From NCBI GenBank assembly GCA_036821485.1, contig DAISJM010000005.1:16815-80814 (forward strand): 64,000 nt of DNA, given 5' to 3'. This DNA is from Verrucomicrobiota bacterium. GTDB taxonomy: Bacteria; Verrucomicrobiota; Kiritimatiellia; CAIQIC01; JAGNIJ01. The notes under the pieces are model-generated. The model worked only from the letters and a program-made list of their open reading frames with translations. It was not told where the DNA came from and ran no database searches. Position numbers and translations under genes: made by a program. Within the stretch, counting starts at the first letter, position 1; every line of letters begins with the position of its first letter. This document shows positions 3,375 through 62,325 of the stretch, piece by piece.

Positions 3375-3490
3375 AAAGGGACTCCCTCAGCTCAATACGT
3401 TCGATTGCTCATTCTAGGTAAACCCCTCGGGATTGTCAAAGTTAAGGGCTGTGGCTAAACTGCGCGAAACAGGAAGACCCACGGGCAAGT

Positions 3491-6389: not shown

Positions 6390-6511
6390 ATGTTGTGCCG
6401 TGGAGAAACTAGGGAAGAGGGCGGCTTTTGTCAACACGCGCCGCACGGGGTGATACCCGCTTGTGTGGGCCCGCAGGAATTGGTATTTGGGTGCCTGACA
6501 AGGATGTAACG

Positions 6512-13506: not shown

Positions 13507-14010
13507 CTACCGCGATCCGGACTTCTTTTCCAGCGCTTCGAGCACCAACGTGGCCCGGCCGAAGCCCGGCACCTGGTCCTGCGCGCTGATGTTGAGCTCG
13601 GCCAGCCGCCACGGCGGCCTGTTGCCGGACTCCGAGACGCGATCAAGCAATCGGGAAAGATCGGCCAGGCGGATACGATCGATGGTTACTTCCACGCTGC
13701 GCAGGGTCCAGCCTTCGGCTAGGGGACGCGACTCGCGGAGCCGTTGCTGGGTCTCGATGCCGGGGAAGGCGCTGCGGAGAAGGTTGTCCAGCGGCGCGGG
13801 TGTGTGCTGCGGCAGCTTTTCATATAGCTCGATTGCGGCAGTTTCCCGGTCGCAGCCGGCCTGCAGGACGCGCAGTTTTTCCAACGTGTCGATCCGGCTG
13901 CGGATCTGGCGCGCGGATTCCGGTGTAAGGCGCAGCGCCTGCACGGTGATGAGGATTCCGGCGGCGAACATCGCCGCCGACGCCATAAGAAACATGGAGC
14001 GCCGCGTCAC
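13507..14010 (-). CDS. gspM: T2SS protein M / PilO-like bitopic inner-membrane protein
   Basis: 167 aa with N-terminal TM (MFLMASAAMFAAGILITV), a coiled segment and a periplasmic domain. It lies immediately downstream of a GspL-like gene with a 4-bp overlap. Confidence 0.5.
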   Translation of the reverse strand: MTRRSMFLMASAAMFAAGILITVQALRLTPESARQIRSRIDTLEKLRVLQAGCDRETAAIELYEKLPQHTPAPLDNLLRSAFPGIETQQRLRESRPLAEGWTLRSVEVTIDRIRLADLSRLLDRVSESGNRPPWRLAELNISAQDQVPGFGRATLVLEALEKKSGSR

Positions 14011-15464
14011 GATGACGGCCCTCCTGCGGATCGCGCGCCCTTGATGGTGAAATGCACGCGTTCGTCCTCGAGCGCATCCTGCCGTTCGATACTGACGATG
14101 AACCCCGCGTTGCGCAGCGGCGCGGCGAGTCCGGCGCAGCGGTCCCAGTCGGGGGAGCTTCCGCGCAGCGTGGCTACGTCGTCGATCAGCGACAGCGCCT
14201 CGATGTCCATACCCGTGTCGCGCGCGATTTTCAGGATGTCGGACAGCAGGCTGGTGAGGGGTGGTTCAACATTCTGGAGAAAAGGCGTCAGGGTTGGCGC
14301 GCGTTGTTCGATCGCTCGCTGTACGGTCAGGATCTCCTGACCTTTCGGAATTCGCGACGTGCGCGCGAGTTTTGAGGCCAGGCTGCTGATGGATTCCTGC
14401 AGGAGGCCCCGACGCTGCTCCAGGAAAGCGCGCCAGGTCAGTCCCATACCGCAGAGGAGCAAGCCTGCGACAAGGCAGGTTGTGGCGGCCAGCGAGACTT
14501 GGCGTTCCTGCCACAACGCCGCCCGCGGATGCGCGAGGGCGCCCGACCGGAAGTTGCAGGAGAGGGGTGTACTCCGCAGGCTCCGGGCGGCAAGGGCCCG
14601 GGCGAGGAAGAGAGATGGGCGATCGTGTGTCGCAAAGCGAATGCTGCCGGTTCCGCCTAGCGCCGTCTGCAGCGCGGCGATCGCGGTGGATGTGGCGCCG
14701 GGGCCCGTCCATAGCCACAGGACCGGTTGACTGTTGGCGGCGGGTTGCGAGAGCAATACCTGTCGCGCGCGCTGGGCAAATTGGCGGATTCGGTCCGGGT
14801 CGGCTTCCAACTCGGCCCATCCCATTCGGATGGCATGGGAACTGGCGTAATCCAGACCGCGCCCGGTGACCAGTGCTGCATGTTCCGTGCCGAGGCAGGC
14901 CACGATGCGCACGGTGTCCCGCTCGGGAGGAATCTCCTCTGTGCTTTGGCTCCACAGCGCGAGACCTTCGTGGTCCAGCCGGTCCGGCGACACGCCCATG
15001 TCCTCAAGGGCGGCGAGACGTTGCTCGACATCTTCCGTGCGCGCGGCTACGCCGAGGGCGTCCACGGACCCGGCGCTGTTGCGACCTACGCCTACGAACT
15101 CGCACCGGCACGCCTCGATGGGGAAAGGCAACTGGATATCCAGCATGGACGGCAGCACCTTGCGCGCCTTGGTCACGGAGGACAGGGGTGTTTGTATCCA
15201 GCGGGTAAGGCTCTCGTGGACAGGCATGCAGGCCGAGACCAGCGCGTGGCCGGCTTCCGCCTCGGCCCGCACGCGGGCGAGGATGGCGGTGGTCGACGCA
15301 TCGGGCGGACCCGCGTGATCGAGCACCGCTTCTTCCTTCAGCCCGCGTCGTGTCCGCTCGGAGCGAACGACAACCAAGCGGTTGCGCGCGGCGTCGACGC
15401 CATAGCTGATGCTGCATTGCCGGGCTTCAAACATATCCATCTCGCGCTGTGTCAGAAGACCCAC
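14007..15464 (-). CDS. gspL: T2SS protein L-like (PilM-like cytoplasmic actin-fold domain + TM + PilN-like periplasmic domain)
   Basis: Cytoplasmic N-domain ~330 aa, one TM (LAATTCLVAGLLLCGMGLTW), then a periplasmic ~160-aa domain. The architecture matches GspL or a PilM-PilN fusion. Start uncertain (M at 15464 or 15440). Confidence 0.6.
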   Translation of the reverse strand: MGLLTQREMDMFEARQCSISYGVDAARNRLVVVRSERTRRGLKEEAVLDHAGPPDASTTAILARVRAEAEAGHALVSACMPVHESLTRWIQTPLSSVTKARKVLPSMLDIQLPFPIEACRCEFVGVGRNSAGSVDALGVAARTEDVEQRLAALEDMGVSPDRLDHEGLALWSQSTEEIPPERDTVRIVACLGTEHAALVTGRGLDYASSHAIRMGWAELEADPDRIRQFAQRARQVLLSQPAANSQPVLWLWTGPGATSTAIAALQTALGGTGSIRFATHDRPSLFLARALAARSLRSTPLSCNFRSGALAHPRAALWQERQVSLAATTCLVAGLLLCGMGLTWRAFLEQRRGLLQESISSLASKLARTSRIPKGQEILTVQRAIEQRAPTLTPFLQNVEPPLTSLLSDILKIARDTGMDIEALSLIDDVATLRGSSPDWDRCAGLAAPLRNAGFIVSIERQDALEDERVHFTIKGARSAGGPSS

Positions 15465-16762
15465 TGGATCGCGTCCACATCGCCTTGCGCATCGCGCCGG
15501 GCCAGCACGCGAAGGTGCTCGGTTCGGCCCTCGGCATACGCTTGCACGTCGACCACGAATGCGGAACTCTTCACATCAAGATACCTGCCTGCAGTGCGCA
15601 GGAACTGCGGGTCCGCGGAAATCGCGGAGGTTTCCACGGAGCGGATGGGGCCGAGGGCGCGCTGGAAAAGAATGGCCGCCACGAGATCTTCGCGATCGAG
15701 CCCGAGAACGCCAAGAAGGACCTCCTTGCTGGCGGTATTCACGTTGACCGGCAGCGGCCGCGCGCGCGGCAGCGGCACGACGGTAAGGCAGTCCACGAAG
15801 TCGGCGTTGAAGACTTCGAGCGCGCTGTGACGCGGATGCCGTTCAAAAAAGGCGCGTGAGAATCCCCGCACCTGCGCCCACTCACCCCACGAGTAAAGGA
15901 TACGGTTGGCAGGACGGTAGGGCGGCGTCAGCGTTTTGTAGTAGGCGGATTCGCCCGTGCCGTCATCGTCCCCGTCGATCCAGTCCTTGAGGGCTTCGAC
16001 GCGCTCAACGGGGGAGAAGTCGCCGCAGAGCGTCATGATGTCCATCACGATGTCGTCCGCCGTGCGGGTGGAGTTGCCGGTGGTGGTTACGGCGAGATTG
16101 TTGACGTCGAAACAGCGGCTCTCGTCGAGGATGCGCACGCGGGTGGTGATGCCGGAGGGATCCTTGACTTCGCGCGTGATGGCCCACGCCTCATTGGTGT
16201 GGTCCACGACGAGGTCCTCGTCATCGGCGAGCCGTTGGAGGGCGGCGTGTGCGGCGTCCGTGGCCGCATGCTGAAGCTGTGCGGTCAGCACCGAAGCCTG
16301 CCGCTGCCGCAACGCGGCGCGTGCGGCGGTCTGCGCCTGCAGGACGAGTCCGGCGACAAGTCCCAACATGATCAGCACGAGGATCAATACCGCGCCACTT
16401 TCATCGGAAGGGGTTGCCGGATCCGCTTCAACCGTCGCGGGAGTTGCCTCGCCGAACTTCGTATTGAGATAGGGTTGCGGACGGTGCTGGCTGGTGCCTG
16501 TGCCGCGGAATCGCTCCAGGATCAGCCGGAGCACAATGAGGAGGACCCCGACGACAAGGTAGCCGAGGCTGAACGCCGCCATGCGGTGATGATTGGCCGT
16601 GAACACGCGGAGGAAACTCAGCGCGAAGATGATGACGCTGCAGATCAGCGACAGGATGCCCACGACGAGGGACAGCAGCGACACCTTCTTAAAGAAACGT
16701 CGCCGGGCATGGTAAGCGTGGCCCTGTCTCTGCCGGCGTTCTCTGTCTCGGTGCTGCGTCAT
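15452..16762 (-). CDS. gspK: T2SS minor pseudopilin K-like protein (GspK) with an unusual ~110-aa N-terminal extension carrying two extra hydrophobic segments
   Basis: From ~aa 115 there is a hydrophobic pseudopilin-like segment (GAVLILVLIMLGLVAGLVLQAQTAARAALRQRQ), then ...EAWA..., and the GspK helix-hairpin-helix motif PVNVNTASKEVLLGV. The upstream in-frame extension, with two further hydrophobic segments, is atypical. An internal GTG start is possible. Confidence 0.65.
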   Translation of the reverse strand: MTQHRDRERRQRQGHAYHARRRFFKKVSLLSLVVGILSLICSVIIFALSFLRVFTANHHRMAAFSLGYLVVGVLLIVLRLILERFRGTGTSQHRPQPYLNTKFGEATPATVEADPATPSDESGAVLILVLIMLGLVAGLVLQAQTAARAALRQRQASVLTAQLQHAATDAAHAALQRLADDEDLVVDHTNEAWAITREVKDPSGITTRVRILDESRCFDVNNLAVTTTGNSTRTADDIVMDIMTLCGDFSPVERVEALKDWIDGDDDGTGESAYYKTLTPPYRPANRILYSWGEWAQVRGFSRAFFERHPRHSALEVFNADFVDCLTVVPLPRARPLPVNVNTASKEVLLGVLGLDREDLVAAILFQRALGPIRSVETSAISADPQFLRTAGRYLDVKSSAFVVDVQAYAEGRTEHLRVLARRDAQGDVDAIQWVF

Positions 16763-21271: not shown

Positions 21272-22657
21272 CTAATCTCCGGGCGGTGTGTTGTCCGCAT
21301 CCTTCTCGCGCAGGCCATATTCGTTCAGCTTGCGGTGCAGGGTGCGGCGGCTGATGCCGAGTTGGGCGGCCGCCTTTGTGCGGTTGCCTGCGTGGTGTTT
21401 GAGTGCGTCGGCGATCATGCGTTTCTCGGCGTCCTGCAGGGACAACTCCGCGCCGGCGGTGGCCGCGGGGCGGTGGGGTAGCGCCGCCTTAAGCTGGGCT
21501 GGAATATCACGGACGCTGAGCTTGTCGCCCCGGCAGAGCACGACCATGCGCTCCATCGCGTTGCGGAGTTCGCGGACGTTGCCGGGCCACGGATAGGCGG
21601 CCAGCAGTTCCATGGCCTCGGGCGTGATGCCGGAAATAGCCTTGTTGTTCTCCCTCGCGAGCGTGGTCAGGAACTGCTGCACGAGCAAGGGGACATCGCC
21701 CGGCCGCTCGCGGAGCGGCGGCAGATGGATGACCATGACATAAAGACGGTAAAAGAGGTCTTCGCGGAAACGGCCTTCCTCCACGAGCTTCTTGAGGTCG
21801 CGGTTGGTGGCCGCGATGAGGCGGACGTCGACATCGACCGTGTCTTGCCCGCCGACACGTTCGAATTTCCGTTCCTCGAGCACGCGCAGGATTTTGACCT
21901 GGGTGTTCGGATCGATCTCGCCGATTTCATCGAGGAAGAGGGTGCCGCCGTCGGCGAGTTCAAACCGTCCGCGCCGGCGCTCCGCGGCGCCGGTGAAGGC
22001 GCCCTTCTCGTGTCCGAACAGTTCGCTCTCGAGAAGGTTGTGTGCAAGCGCGGCGCAATGGACGGGCACGAAGGGGCCCCGCGCCTGGGCGCTCATGCGG
22101 TGGATCGCCTGGGCCACCAGTTCCTTGCCGGTGCCGCTCTCGCCCTGGATCAGTACGGTCGCGCGCGAGGGCGCAACCTGGCGGATCGTGTCGAACACTT
22201 CTCTCATGGCCGGCGACTGGCCGATCATGCTTTCCATGCCGAACTTGGCATCGAGCTGTTCATGCAGCCGGCGATTTTCGGTCTCCATCTCGCGTCCGCG
22301 GAGCGCGCGCTGGAGCAGGAGCTCGAGGCGATCGAGGTGGACCGGCTTGGTGAGAAAATCGTAGGCGCCCCGCTTCATCGCCTCGACGGCAGTCTCGATG
22401 TTGCCGTAGGCGGTGAGCAGGATGCAGACAGGGGCGGGGGTGCGGGCGAGCGCCCGCTGCATCAGGGTCAGCCCGTCCATGCCGGGCATGCGGACATCGC
22501 TCAGCATGACGTCCACGTTGTGCTCGCCGAGCAGAGCCATCGCGCTTGTTCCGCTCTCGGCGAGGAGGATGTCGTAGTTGCGGCGGAGTGCGCGGGCGAG
22601 GCCCTCGCGTGTGTTCTTCTCGTCGTCGACAATGAGGATGAGAGGTTTGCGGTTCAT
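21272..22657 (-). CDS. Sigma-54-dependent response regulator (NtrC family: receiver + AAA+ + HTH)
   Basis: Receiver LIVDDE...DVRMPGMDG, AAA+ GESGTGKE, GAFTGA motif, ESELFGHEKGAFTGA, and C-terminal HTH RTKAAAQLGISRRTLHRKL. Confidence 0.9.
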   Translation of the reverse strand: MNRKPLILIVDDEKNTREGLARALRRNYDILLAESGTSAMALLGEHNVDVMLSDVRMPGMDGLTLMQRALARTPAPVCILLTAYGNIETAVEAMKRGAYDFLTKPVHLDRLELLLQRALRGREMETENRRLHEQLDAKFGMESMIGQSPAMREVFDTIRQVAPSRATVLIQGESGTGKELVAQAIHRMSAQARGPFVPVHCAALAHNLLESELFGHEKGAFTGAAERRRGRFELADGGTLFLDEIGEIDPNTQVKILRVLEERKFERVGGQDTVDVDVRLIAATNRDLKKLVEEGRFREDLFYRLYVMVIHLPPLRERPGDVPLLVQQFLTTLARENNKAISGITPEAMELLAAYPWPGNVRELRNAMERMVVLCRGDKLSVRDIPAQLKAALPHRPAATAGAELSLQDAEKRMIADALKHHAGNRTKAAAQLGISRRTLHRKLNEYGLREKDADNTPPGD

Positions 22658-23850
22658 GTGGAGACTCCGGGCGCAGTCTGTCCCGATGGGCGATGTGCCT
22701 TGAGCAGGCGGATGCGCCGCTCATCGCGGGGCAGGTACAGGGTGAACGTTGTGCCGATACGCGGCTCGCTTTGCACTTCGATCTGGCCGCCATGGTCCCG
22801 CACGATACGTTGGACGATCATCAATCCGAGGCCGGACCCCTCGGCCTTGCTTGAGTTGTAGGGTTCGAAGATGTGGCTCAGGTCCTCCGGGGGAATCCCC
22901 GGGCCGGTGTCCTTGAACGACACGGCGACAAACCGGTCCGTGGAGCCCGTCTGGATGCGGAGCAGCCCGCCCTTGGGCATGGCCTGGATCGCGTTGCGGA
23001 TGATGTTGAAGAAGGCCTGCTTGATCTGGGCGATGTCCATCTGGACGGCCGGCACATCGTCGGCCGGCTCCACTTCGACGAGCACGTCGCGGTCGTGGAT
23101 CTCGTGTTTCAGAAATTCGAGCGTATCCCGGAGGACCTGGCCCACGTGTGCCTTTTCGAAATGGGGTTGAGTCGGGCGGATCGCGCGCAGGAATTGCGAG
23201 ATGATGCGGTCGAGTCGCGACACTTCCTTCTTGGCGACCTCCACCAGTTCGCCCAGGTTCTGGCGGTCGCCCTCCGCGAGATGGGCGATATCGCGTTCGA
23301 TGAGCTGCAGATGGATGTTCAGCGAATTGAGCGGATTGCCGATCTCGTGGGCGACGCCCGCGGCAAGAAGCGTCAAGGCGTTGAGCTTTTCGGACTCGAT
23401 CGTCTGGGCCTCCTTCTCGCGTTCGCTGGTGATGTCGCGGAGGATGACGACGGCGCCGCGGCCATCCTGTTCGGCGGCGGCCAGCGGGACGACGTAGAAA
23501 TCCACGAAACGGTGTTCGGGGTAGGAAATCTCGATTTCGCGGCTGACGAGGTGTGCCCATTCCTCTTCGTCGAGCTGGAGGATACTCTCCCAGTCCATGT
23601 CGCGCAGGTAGCGACGGATGGGCTGCCCCTCCACGCCCTCGCGCGGCAGTCCGAGCATGGTGGCGGCGGCGCGGTTGGCATAGACCACGCGGGCCGCTCC
23701 ATCGAGCACGATCAACCCCTCGCGCACCGCGTTGAAAATGGTCTCGAGCAGACCCTTCTCGCGGGCGAGCCGGAGGAAGTGCGTTTGCAGGCTTCCGGGA
23801 TCCAGCTTGTCCAGCCGATCGATCAATTTATCGAGGAAAGCGGTCTTCAT
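22654..23850 (-). CDS. Sensor histidine kinase (PAS + HisKA + HATPase_c; cytoplasmic, NtrB-like)
   Basis: PAS-like N-terminal half, H-box AAGVAHEIGNPL, N-box FFNIIRNAIQAM, and G-boxes DTGPGI and GSGLGL. It overlaps the regulator gene by 4 bp (ATGA), so the two are translationally coupled. Confidence 0.85.
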   Translation of the reverse strand: MKTAFLDKLIDRLDKLDPGSLQTHFLRLAREKGLLETIFNAVREGLIVLDGAARVVYANRAAATMLGLPREGVEGQPIRRYLRDMDWESILQLDEEEWAHLVSREIEISYPEHRFVDFYVVPLAAAEQDGRGAVVILRDITSEREKEAQTIESEKLNALTLLAAGVAHEIGNPLNSLNIHLQLIERDIAHLAEGDRQNLGELVEVAKKEVSRLDRIISQFLRAIRPTQPHFEKAHVGQVLRDTLEFLKHEIHDRDVLVEVEPADDVPAVQMDIAQIKQAFFNIIRNAIQAMPKGGLLRIQTGSTDRFVAVSFKDTGPGIPPEDLSHIFEPYNSSKAEGSGLGLMIVQRIVRDHGGQIEVQSEPRIGTTFTLYLPRDERRIRLLKAHRPSGQTAPGVST

Positions 23851-25229: not shown

Positions 25230-27752
25230 ATGTCCGACCAGACGACACCGATGATGGGGCAGTATCGGCGCATCAAGGGCGAGGTTTCCGCCGACACCAT
25301 TCTCTTTTTCCGGCTCGGCGATTTCTACGAAATGTTCTTCGAGGACGCGAAGGAAGCGTCCCAGATTCTCGACATCACGCTCACCAAGCGGCAGGGCGTG
25401 CCGATGTGCGGCGTGCCGTTTCATGCGGCGGAGTCCTACCTCGCCAAGCTCATCCGCGCGGGCCGCAAGGTGGCCATTTGCGACCAGGTCGAAGATCCTT
25501 CCGTGGCGCGCGGGATTGTCCGGCGCGAAATCACGCGGGTGGTTACGCCGGGCACAGTCCTCGAAGATCATGTGCTCGACTCGGGCCGTAACAACTACCT
25601 CGCGGGATTGTTTCTCGCAGGCGACGTGTTTGGTTTGGCCATGCTCGACGTTTCCACCGGCGCGTTCTGGATCGAAGAGAGCCGCGACCCGACGCAGGTG
25701 GCGGACAACCTCGCGCGCTATGCGCCCGCGGAATGCATCGTGCCGGAGGAGCACGAGGAGGATCCGGCCCTTCGCGCGTTGCTGCAGGGCGCGGGTTCGA
25801 GTTTGCTGACTGCGTACGAAGGCTGGACGTTTGAATACGACACGGCGGAAGACCTGCTGAAGCGGCACTTCAGCGTGCATTCGCTTTCCGGGTTTGGATG
25901 CGACGGGCATCGCGCGGGTGTGGGCGCGGCCGGCGCAATTCTGCACTATGTTTCCCACGAGCTGCGTCGCCAGGTCGCGCACGTGCGCCAGCTCAGCGTG
26001 CGGCACCCGGCTGATTACATGCTTCTGGACGATGCGACGATTTCCAATCTCGACCTGGTGGCCTCGCGCGGGACATCAAGAACCGGCAGTCCAACCACGC
26101 TGCTCGGTGTGCTCGACGCGACGAAGACCGCGATGGGCAGCCGCCTGCTGCGCGACTGGATGGTGCGGCCGTTGATGAAGCTCGACGAGATTAACCACCG
26201 GCACGATGCCGTGCAGGCGCTGGGCGAGGATCGCCGTTTGCTGGGCGACCTGCGCGACCGGCTGCTGCAGGTGAAGGATCTCGAGCGGTTGATCGCGCGG
26301 CTGGGCGCGGGCACGGGCAACGCGCGAGATCTGCGCGCGCTGGATCTCTCGCTGGCCGAACTGCCCGGGCTCAAGGAACAGTTTGCCTCGCACCCGGTTG
26401 CCACGTTGTCGTCCCTCGTGACAAAGATCGAGCCGCTACCCGATCTCGTGGCGCTGATTGATCGGGCGATTGTCGATGAGCCGCCGATTGCCGTGAAGGA
26501 CGGCGGGATGATCCGCAAGGGTTATCATGCCGAGTTGGACGAACTGAAGGCGGCGGCGACGGAAGGCCGCCAGTGGCTGGCCGATTTCCAGGCGCGCGAA
26601 CAGGAACGCACCGGCATCAAATCGCTGAAGGTCCGGCACAACAAGGTCTTCGGCTACTACATCGAAATCACCAAGGCCAATCTGGCCGATGCGCCGGCCG
26701 ACTACATTCGCAAGCAGACGTTGGTGAACGCGGAGCGGTTCATCACGCCCGAGTTGAAGGAATACGAGAACAAGATTCTTGGCGCGCAGGAGCGATCGTT
26801 ACAGCTCGAGTTGGAACTTTTCCAGGAGGTCCGCACGGCGGCCGTGGCCGAGACGGCACGCATTCAGCAATCGGCAGCGGCGATCGCCGCGCTGGACGCG
26901 CTCGGCGCGCTGGCCGATCGCGCCCTTGCGCTGAGCTATGTGCGGCCGCGCATGACCGATGCTGGTTTGATCCGCATCCGCGATGGCCGCCATCCGGTCA
27001 TCGAGCAGATGACCGATGCCGAGCGGTTCGTTCCCAACGACACGATTCTGGACAATCTCGACTGCCAGGTGGTCATCATCACCGGTCCGAACATGGCGGG
27101 TAAGTCCACCTATATCCGGCAGGTCGCACTGATCGTGATCATGGCGCAGATGGGTTCTTTCGTGCCCGCGGCCGAGGCGGAGATTGGCGTCGTGGACCGC
27201 GTGTTCACGCGGGTGGGCGCGAGCGACGATCTGGCGCGCGGCCGGAGCACGTTCATGGTGGAAATGCAGGAGACGGCGAACATCCTGAACAACGCGACAT
27301 CGAAGAGCCTGATCGTGCTGGATGAAATCGGGCGCGGCACGAGCACCTTCGACGGCATCAGCATCGCGTGGGCGGTCGCGGAATATCTGCACAACCAACC
27401 GCGTGTGAAGGCGAAGACGCTGTTTGCCACGCACTATCACGAATTGACGGACCTCGCGCTCGCGCTGCCCGGCGTGAAGAACTACAACGTGCTCGTGCGG
27501 GAAAAGAACGACAAGATTGCCTTCCTCCGCAAGATTGTGCCGGGTGCGGCCGACAAGAGTTACGGCATCCAGGTGGCGCGGCTCGCGGGGCTGCCCGCGG
27601 AAGTCATCGACCGCGCGAAGGAGATTCTCGGCAACCTTGAAGAAGGTGAATTTGAAGGCGGCCAGCCGAAGATCGCGAAGCACGAACCGAAGAAGCGGAA
27701 AGAAGATCCCGGCCAGTTGAACCTCTTCGGAGAACCGCCGCCATCCACGTGA
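25230..27752 (+). CDS. mutS: DNA mismatch repair protein MutS
   Basis: 840 aa. N-terminus TPMMGQYRRIKGEVSADTILFFRLGDFYEMFFEDA, Walker A GPNMAGKSTYIRQ, and STFMVEM...DEIGRGTST...ATHYHEL. Confidence 0.95.
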   Translation: MSDQTTPMMGQYRRIKGEVSADTILFFRLGDFYEMFFEDAKEASQILDITLTKRQGVPMCGVPFHAAESYLAKLIRAGRKVAICDQVEDPSVARGIVRREITRVVTPGTVLEDHVLDSGRNNYLAGLFLAGDVFGLAMLDVSTGAFWIEESRDPTQVADNLARYAPAECIVPEEHEEDPALRALLQGAGSSLLTAYEGWTFEYDTAEDLLKRHFSVHSLSGFGCDGHRAGVGAAGAILHYVSHELRRQVAHVRQLSVRHPADYMLLDDATISNLDLVASRGTSRTGSPTTLLGVLDATKTAMGSRLLRDWMVRPLMKLDEINHRHDAVQALGEDRRLLGDLRDRLLQVKDLERLIARLGAGTGNARDLRALDLSLAELPGLKEQFASHPVATLSSLVTKIEPLPDLVALIDRAIVDEPPIAVKDGGMIRKGYHAELDELKAAATEGRQWLADFQAREQERTGIKSLKVRHNKVFGYYIEITKANLADAPADYIRKQTLVNAERFITPELKEYENKILGAQERSLQLELELFQEVRTAAVAETARIQQSAAAIAALDALGALADRALALSYVRPRMTDAGLIRIRDGRHPVIEQMTDAERFVPNDTILDNLDCQVVIITGPNMAGKSTYIRQVALIVIMAQMGSFVPAAEAEIGVVDRVFTRVGASDDLARGRSTFMVEMQETANILNNATSKSLIVLDEIGRGTSTFDGISIAWAVAEYLHNQPRVKAKTLFATHYHELTDLALALPGVKNYNVLVREKNDKIAFLRKIVPGAADKSYGIQVARLAGLPAEVIDRAKEILGNLEEGEFEGGQPKIAKHEPKKRKEDPGQLNLFGEPPPST

Positions 27753-45530: not shown

Positions 45531-46208
45531 ATGAGCGCGGACATTGCTTATCCTACTTCCAGCGGCCCCCGAAAAATCAACATCCTGGTTTTGTGCATTC
45601 ATCCCGAGTTGGGTGAGGCCTTTTTGCAGAGCGTGTGCACCGGCGCGTCTGGGACCAGTGGCGAAACGGTGGTCGAAAACCGCCCGATCCAGATGGAAGT
45701 GCTCGCGGGCGACCCCCGCCTCACGCCCACCTGGGACGAGAGCCTGAAGAAAGCCGATGCGATTGCGCTCCTCGTCCGCTTTCTCGATGTCATCTCGCTC
45801 GACAAGATCCGCGCCATTTACCGCCGGCTCCCCAGCGAGCGGACTTCCCCGATGTCTGTCGTCCTCTTCCGCGAGGAAGGGGAAATCGATTTCAAGATGA
45901 GCTGCCCCGCGTGCGGCCAGAAGCTGTGGGTGCGCGATACGGACATCGGCAAACGCGGCCGTTGCCCGAACTGCAAGAAGGCCTTCAAGCTTCCGTCGCA
46001 GGCCGGCCATCTCAAGTCTCAGCTCATGCTGCCCGACGCCGTGCCCGCGCTGACCGTCGTGCGCGGCAAGCCGGCCACCTGCCGCGGCGCCCTCGCGAGC
46101 CTTCTGGCCTACCTCAGCGGCACCATCGTGCCGGGGGCCGAGAAGCTCGACCAGGAAACGCTCAAGAAGACCACCGTCCGCGTCCAGATTCAGGACACGG
46201 AGAGCTGA
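45531..46208 (+). CDS. Hypothetical protein: N-terminal alpha/beta (pseudo-receiver/pseudo-GTPase-like) domain + MJ0042-type zinc ribbon
   Basis: Alternating beta-strand/helix pattern (KINILVLC..., ADAIALLVRF..., MSVVLFREEG) with no P-loop or phospho-acceptor Asp pair. Zinc ribbon CPACGQKLWVRDTDIGKRGRCPNCKKAFKLP. Start chosen at MSADIAY (ORF from 45462). Confidence 0.45.
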   Translation: MSADIAYPTSSGPRKINILVLCIHPELGEAFLQSVCTGASGTSGETVVENRPIQMEVLAGDPRLTPTWDESLKKADAIALLVRFLDVISLDKIRAIYRRLPSERTSPMSVVLFREEGEIDFKMSCPACGQKLWVRDTDIGKRGRCPNCKKAFKLPSQAGHLKSQLMLPDAVPALTVVRGKPATCRGALASLLAYLSGTIVPGAEKLDQETLKKTTVRVQIQDTES

Positions 46209-46226
46209 TCGGGCGGTTCGACACCT

Positions 46227-46308
46227 GTTTTTCCAAGCATTGGAAAAAGTGTCGCCATTTTTTCCAACCCTTGGAAATTTTGCCCCCGGTTTTTCCAAGG
46301 ATTGGAAA
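46227..46308. promoter_or_regulatory. Three phased copies of palindrome TTTTTCCAA-N3-TTGGAAAAA (candidate operator array B) immediately upstream of the thioesterase gene
   Basis: TTTTTCCAAGCATTGGAAAAA (46227-46247), TTTTTTCCAACCCTTGGAAATTTT (46257-46280) and TTTTTCCAAGGATTGGAAAA (46289-46308). Centres are 31 bp apart. The array ends 21 bp before the ATG at 46330. Confidence 0.65.
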
Positions 46309-46329
46309 AGTTGTTGAGAGGTCCCGATC

Positions 46330-46833
46330 ATGACACACGCAACGCGAAAACTTACCGGTAAACTTCCCTGGACCCGCTCCTGCTTCGTCTGCGGCGAGAG
46401 CAATCCGCACGGCCTCCACTCCCGGTCGCGTATTGAGGACGGCCGCGTGATGCTGGATTACACGACCCGCGAGTCGGACCGCGGCTATCGCCACATCATG
46501 CACGGCGGCATCGCCGTGACGTTGCTGGACGAGGTGATGACCTGGGCCGCGATCTCCGCCACGGGCCGCGTCTGTGTCGCCGCGGAGCTCGGCGCCCGCC
46601 TCAAGCAGCCGATCCGCGTACCGGAACAACTTCGCGTCGAAGGGTGGACGACCCGGGTAACGTCCAGATTGATCATGACGGAAGGCCGCATCATCGGCCC
46701 CGACGGTGCGGAACGCCTTACGGCCACGGGCAAATATGTGCCGATGCCGGAGGATCAGTTGGAGCTGACCGAGAAGGACTTCGTGCTTTCGGGCGACACG
46801 ATTCCGCCCAAAGAAATCATGGGCGGGCACTGA
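46330..46833 (+). CDS. PaaI/YbgC-type hotdog-fold acyl-CoA thioesterase
   Basis: 167 aa. Sequence ...SCFVCGESNPHGLH...HIMHGGIAVTLLDEVMTWA... typical of the PaaI thioesterase family. Confidence 0.7.
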   Translation: MTHATRKLTGKLPWTRSCFVCGESNPHGLHSRSRIEDGRVMLDYTTRESDRGYRHIMHGGIAVTLLDEVMTWAAISATGRVCVAAELGARLKQPIRVPEQLRVEGWTTRVTSRLIMTEGRIIGPDGAERLTATGKYVPMPEDQLELTEKDFVLSGDTIPPKEIMGGH

Positions 46834-56868: not shown

Positions 56869-59800
56869 TTAGGGGAAAGTGACGCGTGAACGGTAGTAGG
56901 ACGATGCGGGCTGGTTGCTGACGGAGATGGTGATGACGGAGTTGTCGCCCGCCAGGTTGGTGCGGAAGAGGGTCCAGTCGCCCAGGCTGATGTTGGTCCG
57001 CCAATAGATGTTGTAGAGACGGTTGGAGACCGAGCCGAACTGGAGCACGGCCGCGGTATTGGAGCGGCCGGCCTCGATGGCAAAGAAGGACAGACCGTTG
57101 GTCGGTATGGTGCCGGCGACGTATTCGGCGTAGTTGTTGAAGCCGTCGTTGTCCGGATCGGCGTCGGATGTGGCATTCGTGGCTCCGCTGAAGTAGGCCG
57201 ATTCCCACGTGTCCGGCAACCCGTCGCCGTCCAAATCGCCACTGCAGGCGGTGATGAACTGCCCGGCGTTGAGGGCGCCCATGGACATATCGTTGGTGGG
57301 TCCGGCCCAGACAAACTGGGCATACGATGAGCCCGTGCCACGCAGTTGAAGCGACTTGTTTGTTTCGTTGCCGGTTTCCATTACGCCGAGGTCGACGGCG
57401 GTCATGCCTGCGGCGGGGCCATTGGTCGCGGTCATCACGCCCTCATAACTGAGGAACTGGACGACCTGTCCGCTGTGCACGAGCGCGACGGCATCGGACG
57501 GCCCGTTCTGGAGACCAGCCATCGCAAACCAGAGGGCGCCGTAGCCGCATCCCTCGTCGTCGATGGTGCCGGAGATGGCATTGCTGGCGTAGTAGGCCCC
57601 GTTACCGCCGTTGTAGGCGAGGAGGTAGTAGGCGCCCAAGTCGGTTCCTGCGGGGCCGGCGACTTCGACACCTTCGTTGGAGTCGGTGCTGGCATTGTCG
57701 TAGTGGATCTCGTTAATCCAGACCGATGATGTGACGGCGGAATTCACGGTGATCACGATCTCTTCCCAATCGACGCCGTCATCGCCGACGGCCCAGAAGA
57801 GGCTGGTATAGGCGCCGAGGGGCGAGGCGTTGGCCCACGTGAACGTTCCGGCGCCGTTGGTGGTGCCGAACGTGGAGCCGGCCGGGGCGTTGCTGACGGA
57901 AAGGGTGATGGGTTCGCCGTCGATATCCGTGGCGGTGACCGAGAACTGCAGCGTGTTGTTCAGGATGACGGAGCGGTTGCCGATGGCTTGTAGGACCGGC
58001 GGATTCGTGGCTGTGTCGAGGACGCGGAGGACGACGGCCTCGCTGTCCGCGCCGTCCTTATCCGCCGCGTAGAACAGGGAGGTGTAAATGCCGACGGGGG
58101 CGGCGTTGGACCAGGTGAACGTGCCATTGGTGCCGGTGGCGGAGAACTGTGCACCCGCGGGCAGATTGCTGGCGGTCAGGGTCACCGTATCGCCGTCGTG
58201 TTCGGTGGCGGTCACCGTGAAGGTCAGGAGATTGCTCAGGGCCACGTCGCGGTTGCCAATGAGGAATAGGAACGGCGGCTGGTCGGTGGTTCCGCCGCAG
58301 GGATAAATCCACTGCGATGCGTTCAGCGTGTCGCGCGATGCAACATTCGTGGCGGCGCTCCAGACAAACTGCACGTAGCTGGTGCCGACGCCGGACAGTT
58401 GCAGCGAGTTGCCGACGGGCGTCGTGGTGGTTTCCGCGACGTTCAGTTTCTCCGCCGTTACGCCTGCAGCAGGGCCGTTGGATGCGATGACGGTCGCGCC
58501 ATAGCTGACAAACTGAACGAGATTGCTGCCCAGTTCAACCAGGGCGACGCCGTCCGGCCCGTTTTGGAGGCCGGTCATGGGTACCCACACTGCGCCATAG
58601 CCGCATCCCTCGTCGTCGATCGTGCCGGCGAGTGCATTACTCATGTATTGCAGACCGTCGGCGCCGTTGTAGGCGATCAACGAGAAGAGGCTGAGGTCCG
58701 TGCCGGCGGTACCCGCGACTTCGACGCCTTCGTTGGTGTCGGTGCTGGTGTTGTCGTAGTGGAGTTCGTTGATCCAGATGGAGCCGTTGAGCAACACGCG
58801 GAGGATGGCGGGCTGGGACACCGCGCCATCATTGTCCACCGCGTAGAAGCGTGCGGTATAGACGCCGACAGGCGTAGCGTTGGTCCATGTGAACGTGCCG
58901 CTGGCCCCGGACGAGTTGAACGAGGCACCGGCTGGAGCATTGCTCATGCTGAGCGTGATGGCATCGCCATCGGCATCGGTGGCGGTCACGGGGAACGTCA
59001 GCGTGCCGCCGGCTTTCACGTACGCGGTGCCAAAGGGCGCCATCACAGGCAGGTTGGTTGGCGCCATGACGTAGAAGCGGACTATTTCGGAATCCACACC
59101 GTGTATGTCGGAGGCGTAGAAGCGGGACGTGTAGACCCCGACAGGCGTCGGATTGGCCCAGGTGAACGTGCCGTTGCCGTTGGTGGAGGTGAAGGTTGAT
59201 CCGGCGGGTGCATTGCTGATCGTGAGGGTGATCGGATCGCCCTCTGCATCGGTCGCCGTGACGTCGAAAGTCAGCAGATGAGATTCGATCACGGACTTGT
59301 TGCCGATCGTCTGGAGCACAGGCGGTTCGGTCCCCGTCAGGACGCTGATGCGGATGATTTCCCAATCCGTGCCGTCCTTGTCTGCCGCGTAGACGGTACA
59401 GGTGTAGACGCCGACGGGGGTGGGGGTGGTCCAAGTGAATGTGCCGGTGCCGTTGGTAGTGCCGAATGTGGAGCCTGCGGGTGCGTTGCTGATACTGAGC
59501 GTGATGGCGTCGCTGTCGACGTCCCATGCCGCGACCGAGAAGCTGAGCAGATTGCTTTGCACCACGGATTTGTCGCCGATGGCCGACAACACGGGCGGCT
59601 GGTTGGAGCCCTCGCCGCACGGGAAGACGACTTGGCGGCTATTCATAGAACCGCGTGATGGGGCATTGGTCGGGCCGCCCCATGCGAACTGCGTGTAGTT
59701 GGTGCCGACGCCCGTCAGTTGCAGGGAGCGATCCACTTCGGTGCCGGCCTCGGCAACGCCGATGTCCGTGGACGAGAGTTCGATCGCAGGGCCGTCGATG

Positions 59801-62325
59801 GCCACGACGGGGCCTTCATAACTCAGGAACTGCACAACACCGGTTGGATCCTGGACGAGGGCAATCGCATCCGGTCCGTTTTGAAGTCCCTCGATAGGGA
59901 ACCAGACCGCGCCGAATCCGCAGCCTTCGTCATCGATCGTGCCCGAAAGCGAGTTGCTGATGTAGACCGTTCCGTCGCCTCCGTTGTAGGCGTAGATGGA
60001 GTAGAGGCTGAGGTCGACACCGGCGGCGCCCGCGATTTCGACGCCCTCGTTGGTGTCGGTGCTGGCGTTGTCGTAGTGGATTTCGTTGATCCATATCTGA
60101 CCGTCGACCAGCACGCGGATGAGCATGGTTTCGCTCTCGATGCCATCGGTATCAGCGGCATAGAAACTGGTGGTGAAGACGCCGACGGGGCTGGCGTTGG
60201 TCCAAACAAAAGAGCCGTATTCGTTGGTCGAGTTGAACGTGGCGCCCGCAGGCAGGTTGCTGGCGGTCAACGTCACCGTATCGCCGTCTGTCGGTGTGGC
60301 AAAGACATCGAATTGCAGCGTGTTGTGGTCGAAGACATTCCGGGTGCCGATGTGCTGGAGCGCCGGCGGGGTCTTTCCGAGGCTGAAGGCCTTCATGATG
60401 GCCATATGGTCGGCGTTCACGGCGGCGGAGTCGTTGGTCAGGATGGGCGCAGGCGGGTTGGTCCAGAGGCGGCTGTCGAAAACGATGCCGTTCACGAAGT
60501 TGCTGCCGCCCACCACGACCGTGGTGTGGTTCGAGTTCAGCGAAGGGCCTGGCAAGACATAATCGAACGGCTTGGTGCGGGTGGAATTGGAGTCCGTGTC
60601 GCCATATTGATCCGCCGGCTTGCGGCTGTCGGAAACAATGTTGGTGAGGACCAGAACGGCTGGATCGGTCCGTGTATTCACGTTGAGGTCGCCGCAGATG
60701 ACGACGTAATCGTTGGAGGGCCAGCCCGCCGCGGCGACGTAGTTGGTGATATAGGATGCTTCCTCAGCGCGGTCGGCATCGGTACCGCTGGCGTAAAGAT
60801 GGACGCAGACCACGTGCAGGTCGCGGTCGCCGGGGATGTCAATGGTCGCCCAGGCAAAATCCCGCGTCGAAACGATGGGGTCTGCCCATTCGCCCGAGGC
60901 CTTGATCGGCCACCGGCTGATAATGCCGTTGGGGATCGGGAAGTAGTTCGTGGCCTGCGGTTCGATGTAGTACGAGAAGTTGGTGCCGAAATTGACGTCC
61001 ACGAAATTGCGGAAACTCACGTTCGTGATGTTCCATTCCTGGATGCCGACGATGTCCGGCTTCAGGCCGCGCATGATCCGGGTCCCGGGGTCGTAGTACT
61101 TCGAGTCGGCGCCCGTCACCAGGTTGGCCGACATGATTGTAATCGCATCGTTGTCGCGGAGATAGCCGGTGAACTGCGAGGGCGAGCCGGCTTTCGCGGC
61201 GACGAAATTCGTGAGTGTAAGGATGACGGATTCGATCGGTTCGGTCAGGCTGTCGTTGACGACATGGATGGTGGCGATGAGTTGTGTAGGCCCGGTGGCG
61301 GTGAAAACGAGTGTCGTGGGTGACACCGTGTAGTCGCCGTTGGTGCCCCACGTGGCCGTGCCGGCCGCGGTGACCTCGACCGTGGCGCTCGCCGCGCGCG
61401 AGATGACGACGGATACGGCTTGCGTGATGACGTCTTCGCCGAAAGTCAGTTCGGACAGCAGGAAGCGAATCTGGGGCGGGTCAAGAACGCTGATGACGAC
61501 CGCCTGCCATGACGCGCCATCCTTGTCGGCGGCATAGACGAGGCTGGTATAGACGCCGATGGGCATGGCGTTGGTCCATGCAAACGTTCCGCTGCCGTTC
61601 GTGGAACTGAAGGTCGAGCCAGCCGGCGCGTTGCTGACCGACAGGGTGATGGCATCGCCGTCTGTGGGGGTGGCGGACACGCTGAACTGAAGGCTATTGC
61701 TGACGGTCACTGATTGATTGGGGATGGCCAGAAGCACGGGGGGCACATTCGAGGCCGCGCCGATCGAATCATAATACAACTCGACAAATTCGTAGGAGAA
61801 ACTGCTGCTGTCGGAGTACTCGTTGATGACCAACCCTCCCGTGCCGTCGCCCGCGCCACCGGAGCCGGGCGCGCCTGCTGAACTTGCGGTGACGTACCAG
61901 CTTGTGCTTGAGCCGGCGGGGTAGGTGGCCTTCTTCCGTTGCACGGAACGATTGACCGGATCGATCGTGGACGGTGTCATGGCGTCGATATTCGTGCCGC
62001 CCGCATCGTGCAGCGAGAAACGCTCGGCGCCGTCGATCTTCGGGAACGTGTTCGCGGCGTTGAGGTAGACGACGTTGGTGCTCAGTGTCACGCCCCAGGC
62101 GGATTCAAACGAAGCCTTTGTCGCATTGCGTCCGATGACGACATAACCGCCGGGGTTCACGATGGTGCTGGCGGGGATGGTGTAGGTTCGGACCGAGTTG
62201 GTCTGGCGGACGACATAGCCACCGATATCCAGGCCCTGCGCGCCTGCAGCAGAAAGGAGAAGACAGACCAACGTCGTCCATCCTCTCCATGAAGTTCTCA
62301 ACCCCGGTCGATACATCTTGAACAA
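56869..62325 (-). CDS. Giant secreted ExeM/NucH-like extracellular nuclease: signal peptide, multiple lamin-tail domains (LTD), multiple Ig-like (He_PIG/cadherin-like) repeats, endonuclease/exonuclease/phosphatase (EEP) domain, C-terminal Ca-binding DxDxDG region
   Basis: Signal peptide WTTLVCLLLSAAGAQG. LTD-like units (IWINEIHYDNASTDTNEGVEIAG..., SIWINELHYDNTSTDTNEGVEVAG..., SVWINEIHYDNASTDSNEGVEVAG...). Repeated Ig-like units (...ITLT.SN.PAGSTF..TNG.GTFTW....PVGVYT...YA.D.DG). EEP domain (ITIMSANL...DIVGIQEW...LHVVCVHL...VICGDLNV). C-terminal GDLDGDGLPDTWE...DADPDNDGFNNYAEY. Confidence 0.75.
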   Translation of the reverse strand: MFKMYRPGLRTSWRGWTTLVCLLLSAAGAQGLDIGGYVVRQTNSVRTYTIPASTIVNPGGYVVIGRNATKASFESAWGVTLSTNVVYLNAANTFPKIDGAERFSLHDAGGTNIDAMTPSTIDPVNRSVQRKKATYPAGSSTSWYVTASSAGAPGSGGAGDGTGGLVINEYSDSSSFSYEFVELYYDSIGAASNVPPVLLAIPNQSVTVSNSLQFSVSATPTDGDAITLSVSNAPAGSTFSSTNGSGTFAWTNAMPIGVYTSLVYAADKDGASWQAVVISVLDPPQIRFLLSELTFGEDVITQAVSVVISRAASATVEVTAAGTATWGTNGDYTVSPTTLVFTATGPTQLIATIHVVNDSLTEPIESVILTLTNFVAAKAGSPSQFTGYLRDNDAITIMSANLVTGADSKYYDPGTRIMRGLKPDIVGIQEWNITNVSFRNFVDVNFGTNFSYYIEPQATNYFPIPNGIISRWPIKASGEWADPIVSTRDFAWATIDIPGDRDLHVVCVHLYASGTDADRAEEASYITNYVAAAGWPSNDYVVICGDLNVNTRTDPAVLVLTNIVSDSRKPADQYGDTDSNSTRTKPFDYVLPGPSLNSNHTTVVVGGSNFVNGIVFDSRLWTNPPAPILTNDSAAVNADHMAIMKAFSLGKTPPALQHIGTRNVFDHNTLQFDVFATPTDGDTVTLTASNLPAGATFNSTNEYGSFVWTNASPVGVFTTSFYAADTDGIESETMLIRVLVDGQIWINEIHYDNASTDTNEGVEIAGAAGVDLSLYSIYAYNGGDGTVYISNSLSGTIDDEGCGFGAVWFPIEGLQNGPDAIALVQDPTGVVQFLSYEGPVVAIDGPAIELSSTDIGVAEAGTEVDRSLQLTGVGTNYTQFAWGGPTNAPSRGSMNSRQVVFPCGEGSNQPPVLSAIGDKSVVQSNLLSFSVAAWDVDSDAITLSISNAPAGSTFGTTNGTGTFTWTTPTPVGVYTCTVYAADKDGTDWEIIRISVLTGTEPPVLQTIGNKSVIESHLLTFDVTATDAEGDPITLTISNAPAGSTFTSTNGNGTFTWANPTPVGVYTSRFYASDIHGVDSEIVRFYVMAPTNLPVMAPFGTAYVKAGGTLTFPVTATDADGDAITLSMSNAPAGASFNSSGASGTFTWTNATPVGVYTARFYAVDNDGAVSQPAILRVLLNGSIWINELHYDNTSTDTNEGVEVAGTAGTDLSLFSLIAYNGADGLQYMSNALAGTIDDEGCGYGAVWVPMTGLQNGPDGVALVELGSNLVQFVSYGATVIASNGPAAGVTAEKLNVAETTTTPVGNSLQLSGVGTSYVQFVWSAATNVASRDTLNASQWIYPCGGTTDQPPFLFLIGNRDVALSNLLTFTVTATEHDGDTVTLTASNLPAGAQFSATGTNGTFTWSNAAPVGIYTSLFYAADKDGADSEAVVLRVLDTATNPPVLQAIGNRSVILNNTLQFSVTATDIDGEPITLSVSNAPAGSTFGTTNGAGTFTWANASPLGAYTSLFWAVGDDGVDWEEIVITVNSAVTSSVWINEIHYDNASTDSNEGVEVAGPAGTDLGAYYLLAYNGGNGAYYASNAISGTIDDEGCGYGALWFAMAGLQNGPSDAVALVHSGQVVQFLSYEGVMTATNGPAAGMTAVDLGVMETGNETNKSLQLRGTGSSYAQFVWAGPTNDMSMGALNAGQFITACSGDLDGDGLPDTWESAYFSGATNATSDADPDNDGFNNYAEYVAGTIPTNGLSFFAIEAGRSNTAAVLQFGSVSNRLYNIYWRTNISLGDWTLFRTNLAGDNSVITISVSNQPASSYYRSRVTFP
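57300..61700. repeat. Diverged intragenic tandem repeats (Ig-like/LTD-encoding units) inside the giant nuclease gene
   Basis: Recurrent DNA blocks such as ccaggtgaacgtgcc(a/g)ttg..gccggtggc..gaa appear at ~57836, 58119, 58890, 59161, 59431 and 61571. They correspond to the protein repeats GTFTWTN(A)xPxGVYT. Confidence 0.7.

Follow-up and report, generated by a model that had tools for sequence, protein, structure and literature searches.

What do three copies of one palindrome, set at equal steps in front of a single gene, stand for? The question arises in a 64,000-nucleotide (nt) stretch of DNA from a Verrucomicrobiota bacterium of the Kiritimatiellia (contig DAISJM010000005.1, positions 16,815 to 80,814; henceforth the window), where the three copies lie upstream of a PaaI-type thioesterase gene (array B) and two further copies lie at a gene with an FGE-sulfatase domain (array A). 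An earlier note on this DNA saw in the copies the typical form of a dimeric transcription factor's operator and joined the two loci into one candidate regulon. Our analysis suggests a much larger scale. Array B is one local instance of a dyad-symmetric word that is over-represented throughout the lineage, and recognizing it as such removes a spurious regulon link between the two loci.

The arrays in the window and the word at large

Inspection of the letters confirmed the three palindromes of array B, at 46228-46248 (TTTTTCCAAGCATTGGAAAAA, TTTTT-CCAA-GCA-TTGG-AAAAA), 46258-46281 (TTTTTTCCAACCCTTGGAAATTTT, TTTTTT-CCAA-CCC-TTGG-AAATTTT) and 46290-46309 (TTTTTCCAAGGATTGGAAAA, TTTTT-CCAA-GGA-TTGG-AAAA). 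Their 15-bp cores start at 46231, 46262 and 46293 and are centred at 46238, 46269 and 46300, so that the copies follow one another in steps of exactly 31 bp. The array is real, although the span of 46227-46308 first given for it begins one base early, on a G. It lies in a gap of 121 bp between the stop codon of the upstream open reading frame (ORF; 46206-46208) and the thioesterase ATG at 46330; it occupies 82 of these 121 bases, which is most but not all of the intergenic space that it had been said to fill. The third copy ends 20-21 nt before the ATG, with a Shine-Dalgarno-like GAGAGG box (46316-46321) in between, and a consensus scan of the gap found no promoter-like and no terminator-like site. 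In ten same-species contigs from anaerobic-digester and other metagenomes, array B is identical except at two spacer positions. The spacers at 46249-46257 and 46282-46289 appear unconstrained, each with a single-nucleotide polymorphism within the species and an unrelated counterpart in a related species (L127). Around the first copy there is also an outer 6-bp inverted repeat, CGACAC (46219-46224) and GTGTCG (46249-46254), which is missing from the other copies of array B and from the orthologues.

Five matches to TTCCAANNNTTGGAA were found in the window, as had been claimed, and the count was unchanged when one mismatch was permitted. Dinucleotide-preserving shuffles predict 0.10 matches, and none of 100 shuffles gave five. 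The two matches outside array B start at 3585 and 3617, 32 bp apart, and constitute array A, with copies at 3582-3602 (TTTTT-CCAA-GGG-TTGG-AAAAA, read as FPRVGK) and 3614-3635 (TTTTT-CCAA-TCC-TTGG-AAAAAA, read as FFQSLEK). These copies are likewise real, but it had been overlooked that array A is coding rather than intergenic. It sits within the FGE-domain ORF (3500-4288, plus strand) and encodes VFPRVGKTGGTFFQSLEKS, between the hydrophobic N-terminus and the domain, which begins at residue 45. Flanks of the form CCTG...sTGyCGCC, common to the first copies of arrays A and B, are absent from the orthologues and from other genomes and were dismissed as coincidence.

The abundance of the word was examined by scanning the exact 21-mer TTTTTCCAANNNTTGGAAAAA in one genome per species, which returned at least 116 stretches. 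Among those listed, 105 are labelled Kiritimatiellae/-ales, Pontiellaceae, Tichowtungia, Lentisphaerae, Verrucomicrobia(ota) or Spartobacteria; there are usually several per genome, and they represent about 45 Kiritimatiellia-type isolates and metagenome-assembled genomes (MAGs). The remaining 11 are lone matches in unrelated taxa, and chance predicts as much. The 105 lineage stretches amount to 737 kb and contain 326 sites of the 15-bp core, with a gap between its arms that is always exactly 3. In the same 737 kb, 89 palindromic control words of the same composition averaged 0.03 sites, which places the core about 10^4-fold above them. The over-representation is not an artefact of ascertainment, since 204 of the 326 sites fall outside the search pattern. 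Cluster density is 0.3 per 10 kb in the window and ranges from 0 to 3.7 extra clusters per 10 kb in related genomes; several genomes of 51-56% GC hold 2-4 extra clusters per 10 kb, and in rumen MAGs the arrays are long and other sites few. The preferred centre triplet varies by lineage, in what may be called dialects. Those homologues of the window thioesterase and FGE proteins that carry a source name come from Kiritimatiellae or Verrucomicrobia, which places the window in this group. Only 10 single matches, mostly on low-GC contigs, were found among 2.9 million viral contigs, and a phage or mobile origin was rejected on this count.

The proviso in the earlier note that the copies might belong to an unrecognized repeat element thus proved decisive, as the word is genome-wide. 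Far from there being only five unconserved copies, there are the 326 core sites, and arrays at orthologous loci are conserved. Neither terminal repeats nor target-site duplications were found, flanks are not shared, and spacers of different arrays are unrelated. Because the word is common genome-wide in all contexts, its presence at both the FGE and the thioesterase locus says nothing specific about these two genes.

Sequence constraint on the word

With the half-sites folded together, the consensus is tTTTTCCAA-N-S-N-TTGGAAAAa, a dyad-symmetric word of 19-21 bp whose short form is TTTTTCCAA-NSN-TTGGAAAAA. The half-sites TTCCAA and TTGGAA are invariant, and 96-100% of sites have C or G as the central base. 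T is enriched at -8, -9 and -10, also among single sites that the search pattern had not picked up; conservation ends at about -10/-11 and is flat beyond. The word occurs singly and in arrays of up to 7 copies. The commonest distance between the centres of neighbouring copies is 31 bp, found in 54 independent arrays; a distance of 22 bp was found in 18, distances of 30 and 32 bp in 14 each, and one of 42 bp in 4. A few spacings fall at 53 and 62 bp, and the ranges 23-28 and 34-40 bp are empty. The values of 22, 31, 42 and 53 bp correspond approximately to 2, 3, 4 and 5 turns of the helix. Spacers of the same array share 44% identity and those of different arrays 29%, which is background; the 31-bp spacing is therefore not inherited from one mobile unit. 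Identical spacer pairs inside some arrays (L125) reflect recent tandem duplication. In one locus (L104, 362-460) the copies are 42 bp apart and the spacers contain small G+C hairpins.

Several observations bear on whether the word is read as double-stranded DNA or as a folded strand. Degenerate copies are mutated in a single arm in 98 cases and compensated in 8, and deviations in the T:A flanks are complementary in only 8-15% of cases. Each hairpin by itself has a stem of at most 9 bp with 2 G:C pairs and is weak, at -4.6 to -6.2 kcal/mol. The word has no orientation with respect to gene direction, the central base being C in 45 cases and G in 43. Centre triplets within an array are mostly uniform rather than alternating, and a perfect palindrome has no definable orientation. 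Because of the single-arm mutants, the uncompensated flanks, the weak hairpins, the lack of orientation to transcription and the conserved T at -8 to -10, these data indicate that what is conserved is sequence-specific, dyad-symmetric recognition of double-stranded DNA and not base pairing.

Comparison of orthologous loci points in the same direction. The gene order fusA, zinc-ribbon ORF, thioesterase and UDG is kept in the relatives examined. In the window, the second of these (45531-46208, plus strand) encodes 225 residues with a weak MJ0042-type CxxC zinc-ribbon match and without a Pfam family, and the third (46330-46833, plus strand) encodes a 4HBT/PaaI-like hotdog thioesterase; fusA, the ORF and paaI probably form one transcription unit that contains array B. 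In the relative L127 (83% protein identity), three copies stand in the same 31-bp register. Between it and the window, array B is identical at 36 of 36 arm positions, 15 of 18 T/A flank positions, 3 of 9 centre positions and 8 of 22 spacer positions (36%); in the thioesterase gene, 38 of 82 four-fold degenerate sites (46%) are the same in both. Since the arms are unchanged where neutral sites are near saturation, they are held by constraint or by continuous homogenization. One perfect and one degenerate copy, 31 bp apart, are found in L129 (67%), and L128 (71%) retains only remnants though its synteny is kept. The same gap of L128 contains, at 3955-3990, a G+C-rich perfect hairpin, TAGTAGAAGCGGTC-TCCA-GACCGCTTCTACTA, whose ends (GTAG...CTAC) resemble those of GTAG-tagged repetitive extragenic palindromic (REP) elements; the decayed palindrome remnants adjoin it.

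The FGE locus is syntenic as well. Orthologues at 72% and 59% identity (L130 and L131) keep the array after the hydrophobic N-terminus with the centres flipped, and motif peptides occur at this position in 38 of the 120 listed homologues. L130 (about 2805-2865) has a third copy whose arms are parted by some 33 nt of inserted sequence (TTTTTCC...[insert]...TTGGAAAAA) without loss of the reading frame. A separate feature of this locus is a non-coding block of about 70 nt at 3394-3470, between the FGE-domain gene and a divergent gene for a 451-residue protein (2019-3374, minus strand). By eye it is about 85-90% conserved in both orthologues, with the consensus CGATTGCTsATTCTAGGTAAACCCCnCGGGATTGTCAAAGTyAAGGGCTG, and it has no Rfam match. 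This block is probably the real promoter or regulatory region of the divergent gene pair.

Sites within and between genes

The palindrome is free of stop codons in every frame, except for a central TGA in phase 0. Depending on phase it is read as FFQxLEK, FPxxGK or FSNxWK, and a step of 31 bp shifts the phase by one. Most multi-copy arrays called inside ORFs precede the first Pfam domain (L068, L082 and L112) and are therefore probably 5' non-coding. Single and double sites, in turn, lie truly within the conserved domains of MnmE, ManC and Mfd. In the MnmE of L036, SGSNVWKI stands opposite SGPDSWKI in the alignment with the Thermotoga enzyme, and the stretch VFPNLGKK..SFQTLEN requires only two one-residue gaps, both in the Thermotoga sequence and far below the 21-52 nt of an inserted copy or pair. 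In the ManC of L100, IFQGLEK corresponds to NFEELKK without any insertion or deletion. One site stands at the same residue in orthologues from L048 and L064. As sites in conserved domains show no insertions or deletions against PDB homologues and orthologues, they arise without insertion. A comparison of Mfd orthologues that are 74% identical (L099, 235-3471; L103, 2758-6036) showed four sites present in one and matched in the other by unrelated sequence of equal length, or one residue off in one case; at a fifth site the two differ by a single base. To judge from the alignment, the Mfd sites look like patch replacement and not stepwise mutation.

In ORFs of at least 250 residues, with the first 100 codons excluded, FQxLE occurs 29 times as against 1.1 expected. 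The exact DNA word encodes 24 of these 29, where codon usage predicts 0.95%, and it is therefore the DNA word that drives the peptide. A protein-level motif such as a sorting signal was rejected, as the DNA is the same whichever of the three frames it is read in, and non-coding and convergent contexts have it as well. Gene calls are affected too. The starts of FGE homologues P0129, P0143 and P0180 and one at window position 3626 are called at a TTG or ATG within the palindrome (MEK..., MIGK...), and in other FGE homologues the array is called as coding, which leads to systematic start-site and ORF-extension artefacts in the lineage.

ORFs were called with a simple caller based on G+C content at third codon positions, and those that had swallowed upstream arrays were trimmed, so that the following counts are rough: 59 clusters lie in co-directional gaps, 30 in divergent and 16 in convergent ones, and 53 deep inside ORFs. 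A REP-like depletion at divergent promoters is not claimed, since a 2:1 convergent excess disappeared after trimming. Convergent stop pairs that hold arrays or single copies were checked with Pfam (Fe-hydrogenase/Rex, Lon/MCP, ClpB/DsbD and BamB-like/MFS). Many arrays end 1-50 nt upstream of a start codon, or before or after a signal-peptide-like segment. At L049 (6257-6345) a two-copy array is directly followed by a canonical intrinsic terminator, and the array is therefore not the terminator. Identity of the word with an intrinsic terminator or promoter was rejected in view of the weak stems, the absence of such sites from the array B gap and this separate true terminator. All-against-all BLAST of 270 flanking ORFs yielded no recurrent family, and Pfam searches on the flanks of the largest arrays found unrelated housekeeping genes, with no transposase and no cas gene. 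These searches thus gave no evidence for an autoregulated binder, a transposase or a cas gene as recurrent neighbour.

What the word may be for

The reading that we favour, tentatively and with somewhat less than even confidence, is that the copies are helically phased recognition sites of a lineage-conserved dimeric protein that binds double-stranded DNA and acts genome-wide. That a protein binds the word, that it is a dimer and what it does there we infer from the features described above. One monomer would sit on each TTTCCAA half-site, and in arrays several dimers would be aligned on one face of the helix and bind cooperatively. Acting genome-wide, the protein would be architectural and nucleoid-associated or a very global regulator, and not a repressor of a small regulon. 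At array B, three dimers would cover most of the 121-bp gap up to the ribosome-binding site of the thioesterase gene and, as a speculation, might serve as a roadblock or insulator to read-through into paaI. The original proposal of a dimeric-factor operator survives to this extent: dyad symmetry, invariant half-sites, a free centre, phasing and conservation in orthologues all agree with it, whereas a locus-specific operator does not stand.

Precedents exist for parts of this arrangement. Noc, SlmA and MatP bind as dimers to palindromes of 12-16 bp (NBS, SBS and matS, respectively) that are scattered over the chromosome, genes included. The sopC locus of F and plasmid iterons are tandem arrays with periods of about 22 or 43 bp that load many dimers. 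These systems differ from the present word in that they comprise tens of sites and not hundreds, and in that they are not known to mix dispersed single sites with many small phased arrays. We know of no ParB-, Noc- or SlmA-type partner linked to the word. SigmaN and ECF-type promoters, DnaA boxes and parS/NBS sites were also considered; none is known to fit the spacing, and none is claimed. HIP1 (GCGATCGC) of cyanobacteria is the nearest precedent for a selected, lineage-wide palindrome of unresolved function. It too is strongly over-represented in a whole lineage and conserved in ORFs as well as between them, and it is kept by selection rather than transposition, with a role in nucleoid structure proposed (PMC5861425, PMC4390886). 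HIP1 is, however, an 8-mer tied to orphan methyltransferases (PMC4390886), with more than one copy per gene, whereas the present word measures 19-21 bp, is made of two parts around a free centre, has far fewer copies per kb and forms tandem phased arrays.

Several points weigh against the reading as binding sites. No binding protein for the word was identified, and no recurrent neighbour was found among the 270 flanking ORFs. Only 2 clusters lie in the 64 kb of the window's own genome, which is sparse for an architectural protein. The patch-like replacement in Mfd hints at active "writing" of the word, which a simple binding-site model does not explain, and a dedicated enzyme that homogenizes the copies could give the arms the look of purifying selection. 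Arrays that abut starts or lie in the first codons of secreted proteins could instead mean a function in the mRNA leader. The context statistics depend on a crude ORF caller and, as NCBI labels of MAGs are loose, the range of the word beyond Kiritimatiellia is uncertain. A bolder variant, which we regard as unlikely, would accommodate some of these points. Here Kiritimatiellia would carry a genome-wide DNA "code" not recognized before: a dedicated dimeric protein would polymerize on phased TTTTTCCAA-NSN-TTGGAAAAA copies to organize or mark the chromosome, and the word would perhaps be installed at a register of 22 or 31 bp. Active installation at a fixed register would explain both the length-neutral replacements in Mfd and the unrelated spacers of different arrays. 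In this variant the word would have been tolerated even in genes for secreted proteins, where it is read as FFQxLEK, FPxxGK or FSNxWK.

Four other explanations were weighed against binding sites of a genome-wide protein, and the one we consider least improbable, while still giving it only a small chance, is a repeat of the REP or bacterial interspersed mosaic element (BIME) kind, whose copies a dedicated and possibly domesticated enzyme would spread and hold uniform. Effects on the host, such as mRNA 3'-end protection or binding of gyrase or an IHF-type protein, would then be secondary. REP and BIME elements of Enterobacteria and Pseudomonads number over 100 copies per genome, form regular clusters that fill operon gaps and gene ends and are known to be bound by host proteins (PMC2817692, PMC3733652). 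The present word resembles them as a high-copy short palindrome in regular clusters that fill intra-operon gaps and gene ends as BIMEs do (PMC2817692), and the uniform arms over hundreds of copies and the tandem duplications seen in L125 would also suit such an origin. A REP carries, however, a GTAG or CGTC tetranucleotide tag at one end (PMC3733652), and REP/BIME elements are accompanied by a gene for a REP-associated tyrosine transposase (RAYT), a Y1 transposase, flanked by copies (PMC2817692). For the present word, GTAG and CGTC lie within 12 nt of only 8 and 15 of 330 sites, respectively, which is chance level. No RAYT-like motif was detected in the approximately 1 Mb of loci plus the window, although a regular expression alone is a weak test, and no flanking gene recurs. 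The stems of REPs are G+C-rich, whereas those of the present word are A+T-rich and weak, with flank changes uncompensated and arms conserved by sequence and not by pairing. Furthermore, copies arose in conserved genes without insertion, and the unrelated spacers of different arrays leave no common mobile unit. Finally, REPs are common to a species group, but the present word is common to a whole class, and its orthologous arrays keep their positions beyond synonymous saturation. Origin of copies in genes by substitution is known from the uptake signal sequences (USS) of Pasteurellaceae and the DNA uptake sequences (DUS) of Neisseriaceae. The word could be such a "self" signal, with a competence receptor that prefers fragments carrying it and transformation that spreads the copies, genes included; we think this improbable, and a shade more so than a REP-like repeat. 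Uptake sequences have a density of about 1 per kb. Genome totals in PMC2817400 agree with this value, and the 0.3-3.7 clusters per 10 kb of the present word are well under it. In-gene origin by substitution and peptide inflation, here FQxLE at 29 against 1.1, have been shown for USS/DUS (PMC2817400), and the centre-triplet dialects are comparable to those of DUS (PMC3630211), as is the frequency at convergent genes (PMC2817400, PMC3630211). A word free of stops in nearly all frames, its near-absence from viral contigs (the 10 single matches) and the presence of pseudopilus genes and genes like those of type II secretion systems (T2SS) and type IV pili also fit. Known uptake sequences are nevertheless asymmetric 9-12-mers without helically phased arrays of 2-7 copies. 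The present word is a palindrome with a 3-bp centre and arrays phased at 22 or 31 bp; its strict G:C centre and dyad symmetry suit a dimeric DNA-binding protein better, and the Kiritimatiellia lineage is not known to be competent.

The word could also act in RNA, as transcribed hairpins with 9-bp stems and 3-nt loops that an RNA-binding protein or RNase binds or cuts, tuning translation or stability of the neighbouring cistron. We give this reading little weight, about as much as uptake and REP-like spread. It draws on the position of array B in the probable fusA-ORF-paaI transcript beside a Shine-Dalgarno box, in a gap free of promoter- and terminator-like sites, and on the many arrays placed 1-50 nt before starts or in first codons. 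In addition, the 131-nt region of array B folds better than its shuffles (z = -4.6), and a perfect palindrome gives the same RNA from either strand. Yet there is no covariation, as the arms are invariant and flank changes go uncompensated, and single hairpins are weak. It is not obvious why an element in RNA should keep to discrete spacings of 22, 31 and 42 bp, and the middle loop base is C or G equally whatever the direction of transcription, which argues against a reader of the loop. The L049 array stands beside a canonical terminator. There is no Rfam family for the word either; the search gave only sub-threshold matches to microRNA and other eukaryotic RNA models. Lastly, a locus-specific dimeric transcription factor that co-regulates the FGE-domain and thioesterase genes, as first proposed, can be considered highly improbable. 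Dyad symmetry and phasing are what it would lead one to expect, and so is the conservation of the sites, seen in two other species upstream of paaI and in two species at the FGE gene. The regulon reading fails, however, because the word occurs hundreds of times in related genomes, beside unrelated genes, between convergent stops, where there is no promoter, and in conserved coding sequences. Moreover, array A lies within the FGE coding sequence with a separate conserved non-coding block upstream, and L128 has lost array B despite its kept synteny.

Two classes of repeats were rejected outright. A miniature inverted-repeat transposable element would not account for the lack of shared flanks and of target-site duplications, the unrelated spacers of different arrays or the coding sites without insertions or deletions. 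In a CRISPR array the repeats are set apart by unique spacers of about 26-72 nt, cas genes lie next to it, and a genome has few such loci; the present spacers are 1 or 9-11 nt long, a genome carries many small arrays, and the flanks hold no cas genes.

In the literature searched, no description of the word or of its encoded peptides was found; papers that pair Kiritimatiell* with palindromes concern CRISPR, viruses and microbiomes, and the search returned no paper on repetitive intergenic elements of Kiritimatiell*. Among interspersed or over-represented palindromes, the word is unusual in its phased arrays, its class-wide range and its in-frame persistence in genes for secreted proteins. If the present interpretation is true, a whole class of abundant polysaccharide degraders from sediments, digesters and the rumen has a conserved many-copy cis-element in common. 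This would provide a handle on nucleoid organization or global regulation in Kiritimatiellia, as REP, HIP1 and DUS have done in other phyla. As the word is stop-free and includes TTG, and in some dialects also ATG, gene callers extend ORFs through it or mis-start them, and the proteomes predicted for this group are filled with FFQxLEK, FPxxGK and FSNxWK. In binning such MAGs, the word can further be used as a simple taxonomic marker.

Other features of the window were noted in passing. The regions 14007-16762, 25230-27752, 6428-8179 and 21272-23850 encode PilM-like and T2SS-K-like pseudopilus proteins, MutS and a RecN/SMC-like protein, along with a pair of sigma-54 response regulator and histidine kinase. 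At 56869-62325 on the minus strand, a gene that contains 7 and 3 copies of DNA repeats of 257-268 nt encodes a protein of 1818 residues with Lamin-tail and Exo_endo_phos domains and many He_PIG/Big_9 Ig-like repeats.

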